A stretch of DNA of 35,471 nt from Rickettsiales bacterium (GTDB lineage: Bacteria; Pseudomonadota; Alphaproteobacteria; Rickettsiales; UBA3002), in the NCBI GenBank assembly GCA_947441895.1, contig CANEUT010000001.1:1-35471 (forward strand), read 5' to 3'. The position numbers and the translations under genes were made by a program. Shown in pieces: positions 33,525 to 34,145 of this stretch (position 1 is its first letter; every line of letters starts with the position of its first letter). The notes under the pieces were generated by a model. It was not told the DNA's origin. It ran no database searches and saw nothing but the letters and a program-made list of their open reading frames with translations.

Positions 33525-34145
33525 CTAATATTGAAACGTAATATCTTTAAATGGCTTCACCGCCACGCCGTCCACAAAGAACGCACGATCGCCCGCGGTA
33601 CGAATATTCACGGCATTAGTACCTTTTTTAGGCTTCTCTGCGGTAATAGATGTCACTTCAATCTCACCGGTTTTTGTAATCATTTTATCGCCCACTTCCA
33701 AGCGGCCCACCACCACATCTTTATATTTCATGGTATCATCAGCCGCTTTTAAGCCATCGGTGGTCAAAATAGGGTGATCGCCCGTAATGGCGAATTTAAA
33801 ATCATTAATGCGGTAATAAAACGCCGCCCCATCGGTGCGGTTGACCGAAATCACCTGCGCATCGCCCTCAGGTCCGCGCAGACGATCGCCAATACGAATC
33901 GTTGAAATAGGCTTCTTGCTACCGTCTGCCAAGTCCACCAGCGAATCCGACCGCACGCAGTCATTCACCGTCGCCACGTTACGACAGGCAATGTAAACAA
34001 CAGCTCCATCGGTGGCGGTGGTGCGGGTGAAAGGCACATTCTCCATTTCCCACGCCCAACCCAGCCACGCATCATCAGCCCAGCTCGGCGTGGAAGCCAG
34101 CTGCGCCATCAGCGCGGTCACCACCATTATATAACGTCTTTGCAT
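33525..34145 (-). CDS. Secreted minimal Hint (Hedgehog/intein-like, BIL/PT-HINT-like) domain protein
   Basis: 206 aa. AGAGGA precedes the ATG. The signal peptide is ..LASTPSWA|DD. A ~39-aa N-terminal segment follows, then C63-VRSDSLVDLADGSKKPISTIRIGDRL (Hint block A pattern), AITGDHP (TxxH, block B) and ..VNIRTAGDRAFFVDGVAVKP (block F/G-like, but without the terminal His-Asn). Confidence 0.7.
   Translation of the reverse strand: MQRRYIMVVTALMAQLASTPSWADDAWLGWAWEMENVPFTRTTATDGAVVYIACRNVATVNDCVRSDSLVDLADGSKKPISTIRIGDRLRGPEGDAQVISVNRTDGAAFYYRINDFKFAITGDHPILTTDGLKAADDTMKYKDVVVGRLEVGDKMITKTGEIEVTSITAEKPKKGTNAVNIRTAGDRAFFVDGVAVKPFKDITFQY

Follow-up and report, generated by a model that had tools for sequence, protein, structure and literature searches.

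What would a secreted, self-processing protein domain do among the genes of a Tad pilus? This question is raised by a stretch of 35,471 nucleotides from a Rickettsiales bacterium (contig CANEUT010000001.1; below, the window), in which an open reading frame (ORF) of 206 amino acids (33525..34145, minus strand) encodes an exported protein of the Hint superfamily in the company of TadE- and TadG-like genes. In an earlier note on this DNA, the protein was described as a stand-alone Hint domain whose only cargo is a short N-terminal peptide. Both parts of that description proved misleading: the norm in its family is a Cys-rich secreted protein fused to a Hint domain, and the cargo in the window is the product of an upstream ORF of 231 amino acids that had been missed. 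We consider it probable that the Hint ORF encodes the C-terminal half of a head-Hint protein split naturally into two genes, the upstream one encoding its cargo, that head-Hint proteins are a fixed part of one type of Tad minor-pilin (tip) cassette of the order TadE-TadE/F-[head...Hint]-TadG, and that the Hint domain cleaves itself from its N-terminal flank at the Asp62-Cys63 bond during assembly of the tip, these three elements being judged jointly.

Fold and active-site residues of the Hint ORF

The Hint ORF, taken from the ORF list and detecting homologues to E 1e-91, comprises a signal peptide, a 39-amino-acid leader, the Hint domain and an eight-residue tail. By inspection, its N-terminus is Sec-like, with MQRRY followed by a hydrophobic core and a predicted cleavage site between SWA and DD. 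The predicted signal peptide spans codons 1-23 (MQRRYIMVVTALMAQLASTPSWA, followed by DD; 34077..34145, minus strand as for all features of this ORF) and is kept in a 67% identical relative (P0002), with the same layout in P0002 and in locus L028. Codons 24-62 (33960..34076) encode a Trp-rich, N-extein-like leader with a single Cys, Cys54 in YIAC, and Asp62 as its last residue. Reading the codons places the predicted nucleophile Cys63 (TGC) at 33957..33959, with the predicted scissile bond between Asp62 and Cys63, and the block B TxxH motif, T121-G-D-H124, at 33774..33785. Cys63 is the sole Cys within the Hint domain. The protein ends in ...FFVDGVAVKP-FKDITFQY, where K197-P198 (33552..33557) stand in place of the penultimate His and terminal Asn of inteins, and F199-Y206 (33528..33551) form a tail conserved in the alignment of 64 representatives. 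The extent of the ORF, its Sec signal, the Trp-rich segment, the missing His-Asn and a ribosome-binding site of its own (AGAGGA, 34150-34155, 4 nt 5' of the ATG) had all been read correctly in the earlier note.

The Hint fold proposed there is likewise borne out by structural modeling. An AlphaFold2 (AF2) model of the Hint ORF based on 18 homologues has a predicted local distance difference test score (pLDDT) of 76.8, rising above 85 across most of the Hint core. Comparison of this model with the PDB using Foldseek gave 44 matches at E<=1e-3, all of them Hint-fold structures (bacterial intein-like (BIL) domains, inteins, Hedgehog HhC and Vint), with target-normalised TM-scores of 0.70-0.81 for the top matches. 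Among them are Tetrahymena BIL2 (6y75, E 5e-9), the gp41-1 intein (E 1e-8), the C. thermocellum BIL domain (E 1e-6), DnaB inteins (E about 2e-6), Hedgehog HhC (1at0, E 7e-6) and Vint (8r2c, E 5e-4). A sequence profile of the Hint family also matches PDB chains of Prp8 inteins, Vint and BIL domains, aligned from the Cys onward. Combining a horseshoe-like Hint fold with the block A Cys and the block B TxxH motif, the ORF product is a member of the Hint superfamily.

A search against Hint-family models, which had been proposed as a check, gave a divided answer. For the window protein, the best-scoring Pfam model is Vint (PF14623), at 26.8 bits against a cut-off of 27.0, followed by Hint (PF01079) at 19.7 bits against 29.7 and Hom_end_hint at 18.0; Hint_2 (PF13403) and PT-HINT (PF07591) gave no match at E<=1. 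Among 67 family members, Vint matches all 67 at E<=1e-3 (best E 1.2e-15), Hom_end_hint 34, Hint 13 and Hint_2 10 (E<=1e-3), with PT-HINT matching 7 weakly, and their N-terminal regions are without any Pfam match. In NCBIfam, the head, the Hint protein and the TadG partner are all without a model.

A Hint subtype with a lysine tail and Cys-rich cargo

Searching a set of 5.8 billion proteins with the Hint ORF identified 18 relatives, most of them 300-354 rather than 206 amino acids long, and the fusion architecture was found in 15 of 17 close homologues as well as in distant ones. When 1.84 billion representatives were searched exhaustively with phmmer, 988 proteins scored E<=1e-3, among them 243 with E<=1e-10; the best 150 are of two kinds. 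Ordinary relatives, from many phyla, are large secreted proteins with one or, often, multiple copies of a Hint domain ending in ...ANGxLVHN, its His-Asn exactly where the window protein has K197-P198. In the second kind, about 65 representatives from now on referred to as the K-tail group, the Hint domain forms the extreme C-terminus and ends in ...(A/V)(N/D)G(V/I)x(V/I)K(P/G/S)Fxx(h)x(h)xY-COOH. The relatives belong to metagenome-assembled genomes (MAGs) labelled Rhodospirillaceae, Azospirillum sp. and Rickettsiales, and sample names that indicate a source point to freshwater metagenomes. One protein of 282 amino acids (P0007) joins both Hint subtypes within one chain, in which a His-Asn-type Hint (...YYADGLLAHN), KKDD and a K-tail Hint (CVRADS...KPFNEIEFSF) follow each other in tandem.

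Conservation was counted over 64 K-tail representatives in window numbering. C63 and H124 are invariant (64/64 each) and T121 is present in 94% (60/64, the rest Ser), which together with the codons confirms the block A and block B assignments made earlier. P125, T128, G131 and N114 are each conserved at 100%, N180 at 98%, K133 at 95% and W132 at 91%. At the C-terminus, K197 is found in 91% (58/64), F199 in 97% (62/64) and Y206 in 98% (63/64), position 198 being P, G or S; the residue at position -1 varies between D, G and S. The eight residues following the domain had thus been counted correctly, but they are not an incidental tail, since K197, F199 and Y206 are 91-98% conserved. Family-wide, the tail has the form F-x-x-h-x-h-x-Y-COOH, with alternating hydrophobic residues and an aromatic end, and resembles the beta-signal of outer-membrane proteins and PDZ-binding C-termini.

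Given the intein-like sequence and fold, and weak PT-HINT matches in 7 of the 67 relatives, the domain could be taken for a classical mobile intein or for a PT-HINT domain releasing a C-terminal toxin. Both readings were rejected on sequence and we hold them to be highly improbable: K197-P198 replace the His-Asn of a class 1 intein, only the eight-residue tail follows, PF07591 is not matched at E<=1, and there is no +1 nucleophile, no C-extein, toxin or other domain after the Hint, no homing endonuclease and no interrupted host protein. As there is neither a C-terminal Asn nor a C-extein, neither splicing nor C-terminal cleavage is possible. The residue set fits only an N-terminal acyl shift and cleavage, the first step of Hint chemistry, much as the earlier note had argued.

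The catalytic trio is conserved at 94-100% although family sequences are otherwise only about 30% identical, and this bears on a further alternative, in which the Hint domain would be a non-catalytic folding or docking module that is never cleaved and binds, for example, TadG via its C-terminal strand. The conserved tail and Lys197, which are unrelated to known Hint catalysis, would suit such a module, as would the low pLDDT of the tail in monomer models of the window protein and of the fused protein P0004, since a docking peptide would be similarly disordered. Retention of Cys1 and of the block B Thr and His amid such divergence speaks against it, as does the finding, described below, that the Hint Cys stays the lone unpaired Cys while every cargo Cys is paired. 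We therefore regard a non-catalytic role as unlikely.

Typical relatives are fusions of 300-600 amino acids in which a signal peptide and a conserved Cys-rich head are joined through a variable middle to the Hint domain. In nearly all full-length K-tail members, the signal peptide is followed by the common head motif W..(A)P.AC.P.R....W......C.CPP...CP, often continued by MP....CC..P.CPxGT..G.P.P..G.C and then by a hypervariable middle of CPxGT repeats or other modules. In three examples (L005 8726-10549, L004 750-2270 and P0045), the middle contains units of about 22 residues, CPxG(T/S)xxAGQxxPxxGxCxP, whose number varies, to five or more, a pattern that suggests a stalk of adjustable length. 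In an AF2 model of the fused protein P0004 (pLDDT 75), the head occupies about residues 40-120 and is followed by a beta-rich module (125-205) and the Hint domain. The beta-rich module ends in a Trp-rich helix and a hairpin with YIAC, the counterpart of the 39-residue leader in the window. Only Hint structures in the PDB were matched by Foldseek using the full-length P0004 model, so the head and beta-module have no PDB counterpart.

A naturally split head-Hint gene

In the fused homologues, the C-terminal 145 or so residues align with the window Hint, and the N-terminal parts are homologous to the product of the upstream ORF (34176..34871, minus strand), a secreted Cys-rich head protein of 231 amino acids with 11 Cys that represents the detached cargo. 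This ORF was recognised by its homology to the N-termini of P0005 and P0006: P0005 starts with MASLMTRNRGWIAALLVIVLPMAAEAVTVP, identical to the start of the head ORF, and P0006 differs by one residue. Its leader is of the ordinary Sec type by inspection, with cleavage predicted between AEA and V, and the protein belongs to no Pfam or NCBIfam family. Searching the 5.8-billion set with a head profile of 31 sequences gave one match from 206 candidates, and the whole 231-residue ORF as query found only five relatives; a word pre-filter made both searches uninformative. The 39-residue leader of the Hint ORF is homologous to the last cargo part of the fused proteins P0003, P0004 and P0016-18 and, judged by this homology, is the conserved final piece of the cargo module. 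Because fusions are the normal form of the family and the cargo is the upstream gene, the true architecture is Hedgehog-like, that is, a cargo with a C-terminal Hint domain, split here into two genes.

The head and Hint ORFs share a reading frame, as do their counterparts in L028, and lie 30 nt apart. The spacer (34146-34178, minus strand) reads TAG TAC TAA AAT CGA CGA CGA TTA GAG GAT CAT, then ATG, which separates the ORFs by TAG TAC TAA and eight codons. Such in-frame spacing fits an origin by an in-frame change inside a formerly continuous gene, as far as can be read from the sequence. Stop-codon read-through joining the two ORFs was considered and rejected, as the two in-frame stops (TAG and TAA) exclude it. 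The two-gene form occurs in independent assemblies of the window's lineage (L030, L031 and L032) and in a lineage that is 67% identical, where L028 encodes TadE, TadE, a 283-residue head, a 206-residue Hint and a 457-residue TadG protein. P0002 is also of the split form, and a third stand-alone head ORF was found (P0021/L029). Between the two split lineages, the ratio of nonsynonymous to synonymous substitution rates (dN/dS) is 0.12 across the ORF, 0.10 in the leader and 0.08 within the Hint domain, values that are approximate owing to near-saturation of synonymous sites and are still far below 1. In the signal peptide the ratio is 0.54, compared with about 0.1 in the remainder of the ORF. The split Hint ORF is under purifying selection.

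Two ORFs in frame and 30 nt apart, the first with a new Gly-rich C-terminal tail of about 65 residues that is poorly conserved between lineages, might also be what is left of a broken head-Hint gene or of an assembly error, the 206-residue ORF then being non-functional. An assembly or frameshift artefact was rejected on the recurrence of the split across independent assemblies. A decaying remnant is very unlikely as well, given that the split is repeated in a lineage only 67% identical, that two in-frame stops are accompanied by a new signal peptide and a new ribosome-binding site, that dN/dS is about 0.1 and that the catalytic residues are intact.

Cysteine parity and a proposed intermolecular disulfide

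A relation between the two products of the split gene emerges from their Cys counts. For each fused protein, the Cys residues lying between the first head Cys and the nucleophile were counted, and 49 of 54 cargos gave an even number (binomial p 4e-10); several of the five exceptions are due to a signal-peptide Cys being counted. All four split head ORFs have an odd number of Cys (11, 11, 19 and 13), and the split Hint leader contains exactly one Cys, Cys54 in YIAC, which equals C203 of P0004 in the subtype comparison. An even number of cargo Cys without any extra Cys in the Hint domain implies that the cargo is fully disulfide-bonded and the nucleophile left free, and an odd number in the split heads together with one Cys in the leader suggests an intermolecular disulfide joining both products. 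We infer that such a bond likely rejoins the head and Hint products, in which case the partner of Cys54 would have to be one of C116, C150 and C154 of the head ORF, and the short leader peptide would be the handle carrying the real cargo.

Linkage to Tad tip genes

The gene order in the window, on the minus strand, is TadE-like, Cys-rich head, Hint, TadG-like. The TadE/TadF-like pseudopilin ORF (34947..>35471; TadE hidden Markov model (HMM), E 1.5e-34) runs past the window end, and the downstream partner is a TadG-like gene of 457 codons (32130..33503; PF13400, E 6e-7; TadG-partner HMM, E 3e-227). The Hint gene had been placed between a TadE-like and a TadG-vWA gene. Of this, the TadG neighbour stands on the strength of PF13400 at its N-terminus, the head ORF intervenes on the TadE side, and the vWA domain was not confirmed: none was found in the TadG-like protein by Pfam (E<=1), by phmmer against the PDB or with a 12-sequence profile against the PDB. 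The best candidate was a vWA-containing mussel protein (E 0.54), and only vWA-like motifs (DVSGTM and MMTDS) were seen.

A linkage survey combining called genes with purpose-built HMMs (K-tail Hint, TadE and TadG partner) was carried out over all fetched loci. In 15 of 17 cassettes, the gene directly after the Hint gene belongs to one TadG subfamily, and two TadE-like genes usually come before the Hint gene, a linkage stronger than could be known when a survey of this kind was first proposed. Adjacent Hint and TadG genes are found in the window, in both cassettes of L001 and of L003/L024-26, in L005, L006, L007, L014, L027, L028 and L034, and in L033, which has two cassettes and three Hint paralogues. 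In L004 the order is Hint-TadE-TadE-TadG, and L002 is the sole exception to the linkage. The TadG subfamily, when aligned, shows 34-77% identity and six invariant Cys. An intact TadE-TadE-head-Hint-TadG cassette is present in L028 and in L031, where it lies downstream of mreBCD-pbp2-rodA. The HMM scan detected TadE or TadG in none of 16 loci with His-Asn-type Hint genes, which are from other phyla.

Two observations on individual loci can be added. Genes for 459-462 amino acids without a precomputed Pfam match in L001 (5839-7236) and L003/L026 (798-2204) are K-tail Hint fusions according to the purpose-built HMM (E ~1e-59), so both tip cassettes there carry head-Hint. In L033 (1923-7401), a freshwater contig, three head-Hint paralogues and two TadG partners stand in a row after a single TadE-TadE pair, which suggests, from the arrangement, diversification of the cargo by duplication.

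According to a recent proposal (PMC12075869), Tad pili are customised by heterotrimeric tip complexes of TadE, TadF and TadG, whose cassettes are present as several paralogues in each genome. The KilL/M/N tips of Myxococcus treated there resemble the present cassettes in combining two small pseudopilins with a large TadG-like protein and in having paralogous cassettes. As far as the sections of that paper on tip cassettes go, the described cassettes consist of three pilin-like proteins and a Hint component is not mentioned; the window adds a fourth component that is Sec-exported and Hint-bearing. The head and Hint ORFs match no TadE or other Tad Pfam family, and their leaders are of the Sec type by inspection rather than prepilin leaders. 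In the literature searched, no paper pairs Hint domains with TadE or TadG and none ties Hint to pilus biogenesis, in line with the earlier remark that no such role had been described for Tad loci. Judged by gene order and homology, one kind of Tad tip cassette in Rhodospirillales- and Rickettsiales-like alphaproteobacteria appears to have head-Hint as a fourth, nearly obligatory gene.

Proposed autoprocessing and fate of the thioester

By analogy with known systems, the window protein would work like a Hedgehog (Hog)- or B-type-BIL-like N-terminal autoprocessing domain. In the proposed sequence of events, Sec would first export the head and Hint products. The leader (residues 24-62) would then re-associate with the head product, most likely through a disulfide between Cys54 and the unpaired head Cys. 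An N-to-S acyl shift at Asp62-Cys63, helped by Thr121 and His124, would yield a thioester, a step that belongs to the established chemistry of inteins and Hedgehog proteins (PMC7765530). Finally, hydrolysis or attack by another nucleophile would resolve the thioester and detach the Hint domain from the cargo. The fold, the conserved residues, the fused and split forms, the gene linkage and the purifying selection are observed, and from them the cleavage itself, the disulfide and the timing at tip assembly are inferred.

Several points weigh against this interpretation. The Pfam scores of the window protein taken alone fall slightly below curated cut-offs, and Asn180 stands where classical inteins have the block F Asp, a feature shared by the His-Asn-type relatives. 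The periplasm is oxidising, so a lone nucleophilic Cys must escape oxidation there. In L002, a head-Hint fusion adjoins virB8-11 and lacks TadG, and every relative comes from metagenomes or MAGs. The hydrolysis product could equally be made by placing a stop codon after Asp62, and the Hint domain is kept everywhere; release alone may therefore not be its whole function.

This last point is relevant to how the thioester is resolved. We favour hydrolytic release as slightly likelier than capture by a partner, with a small remainder for other outcomes. Release would be consistent with BIL precedents (PMC7765530), with the lack of a second-substrate domain and with the variable residue at position -1.

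In the tentative alternative, which we rate as possible, a nucleophile would capture the Hint-activated Asp62 C-terminus of the cargo, in the manner of Hedgehog cholesteroylation or BIL2 isopeptide conjugation. The nucleophile could belong to a partner protein, with the co-encoded TadG or the tip complex as the most plausible candidates, or to a lipid or glycan of the envelope, and a Sec-exported non-pilin cargo would end up covalently anchored at the pilus tip. BIL2, the nearest structure, joins its N-flank to lysines via an isopeptide bond (PMC8616854). Transfer would account for a Hint domain with intact catalytic residues in every member, even after the split, when release needs only a stop codon. 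It would also give meaning to the conserved Lys197 and aromatic tail, which are without a role in classical Hint chemistry, to the strict pairing of the Hint gene with one TadG subfamily, and to a cargo that has a Sec signal and no prepilin leader and thus needs some means of attachment. Against it, BIL2 employs a C-terminal Asn that the window Hint lacks, only eight residues follow the domain where Hedgehog has its sterol-recognition region, the -1 residue varies (D, G or S), and no acceptor residue was identified in the TadG subfamily alignment. Asp at position -1, moreover, tends to speed N-terminal cleavage and hydrolysis in engineered inteins.

One form of transfer, a self-activating ligation module in which a nucleophile of TadG, the tip or an envelope lipid captures the thioester and places a disulfide-rich cargo covalently on a Gram-negative Tad tip, is a shade more doubtful again. 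If true, it would amount to a sortase-independent, Hedgehog- or BIL2-like arming of a type IV pilus, and the split version in the window would transfer only a 39-residue peptide, with the remaining cargo carried via the disulfide.

Comparison with known Hint systems

A close architectural parallel is Hedgehog/Hog (PF01079; 1at0), which shares a secreted N-terminal cargo, a C-terminal Hint domain starting with Cys and carrying TxxH, and residues for N-terminal cleavage chemistry only. The fusion of a secreted domain to a C-terminal Hint is seen throughout the family in proteins of 300-600 residues and is distributed over separate genes in the window. Unlike Hog, this family is bacterial and periplasmic, its cargo is a Cys-rich head without a known fold, the sterol-recognition region is replaced by the conserved eight-residue tail, and PF01079 scores below its cut-off.

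BIL domains of the A- and B-type (Amitai 2003; Dassa 2004; summary in PMC7765530) are Hint domains in variable secreted bacterial proteins that undergo N-terminal autocleavage. BIL2 (6y75) and the C. thermocellum BIL domain are among the top fold matches of the window Hint, and outside the family the sequences nearest to it belong to large secreted proteins whose Hint domains end in His-Asn. An A-type BIL requires the C-terminal His-Asn, as stated in the same source, whereas the window protein has Lys-Pro. The lack of the intein C-terminal motif and the other motif pattern fit the B-type, for which cleavage in the window protein is a prediction; the corresponding model, Hint_2, is matched by 10 of 67 relatives at E<=1e-3 and not by the window protein itself at E<=1. 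The family is set apart from BIL domains by Lys-(Pro/Gly/Ser)-Phe...Tyr-COOH in place of His-Asn, always at the extreme C-terminus, and by its pairing with Tad tip genes and a single head motif at the N-terminus.

Vint is the best-scoring Pfam model and a fold match (8r2c, E 5e-4). Vint proteins are eukaryotic, lack a signal peptide and combine vWA, Vwaint and Vint in one chain (PMC2362128), whereas the window protein is bacterial, has a signal peptide and no vWA in its chain, and is linked to the TadG-like protein only as a gene neighbour. In 2008, Burglin described bacterial proteins, such as Myxococcus MXAN_6253 and Photorhabdus plu1731, in which a Hint-like domain lies at the C-terminus and the N-terminus may be secreted (PMC2362128). 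Compared by description, these have the same general design in other taxa with no Tad linkage reported, and the general architecture of a secreted N-terminus with a C-terminal Hint is therefore not new.

Other genes of the window

The window also carries a type IV secretion system set on the plus strand (2659-12823), consisting of virB4 (2659-5085), virB6/TrbL (5082-6848), virB8, virB9/CagX, virB10/TrbI and virB11 (6970-10713) and virD4 (10910-12823), followed by ppk, ppx and aat. In L002 the order is virD4-ppk-ppx-aat, head-Hint fusion, virB8-11, which places a Hint gene in a syntenic type IV secretion neighbourhood rather than beside TadG. Directly after virD4 in the window, an ORF of 316 amino acids (12904-13854, plus strand) has a pilin-type N-terminal methylation motif at residues 55-79 (PF07963, E 9e-5) and matches no other family. 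Convergent with the TadG gene lies an ORF of 454 amino acids (30672-32036, plus strand); it matches neither Pfam nor NCBIfam, and its N-terminus is rich in Pro, Ala and Thr. The window further encodes purM and purN. G+C content in the TadG/Hint region (32001-34000) is 0.489, compared with 0.51-0.60 elsewhere in the window.

Significance

What appears to be new is the K-tail Hint subtype, its constant N-terminal head, its setting in a Tad tip cassette and its naturally split form. From the split and its Cys parity one can read which cargo segment has to remain joined to the Hint domain, and the two ORFs make a small expressible system in which cleavage and transfer could be told apart. As a family, head-Hint proteins offer a bacterial counterpart to the Hedgehog design of a cargo plus a Hint domain. 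Inteins, Hedgehog proteins, BIL domains and toxin processing are the settings in which Hint domains are known; the linkage of this subtype to Tad genes suggests that the building or arming of Tad pilus tips includes a post-translational step so far unrecognised.

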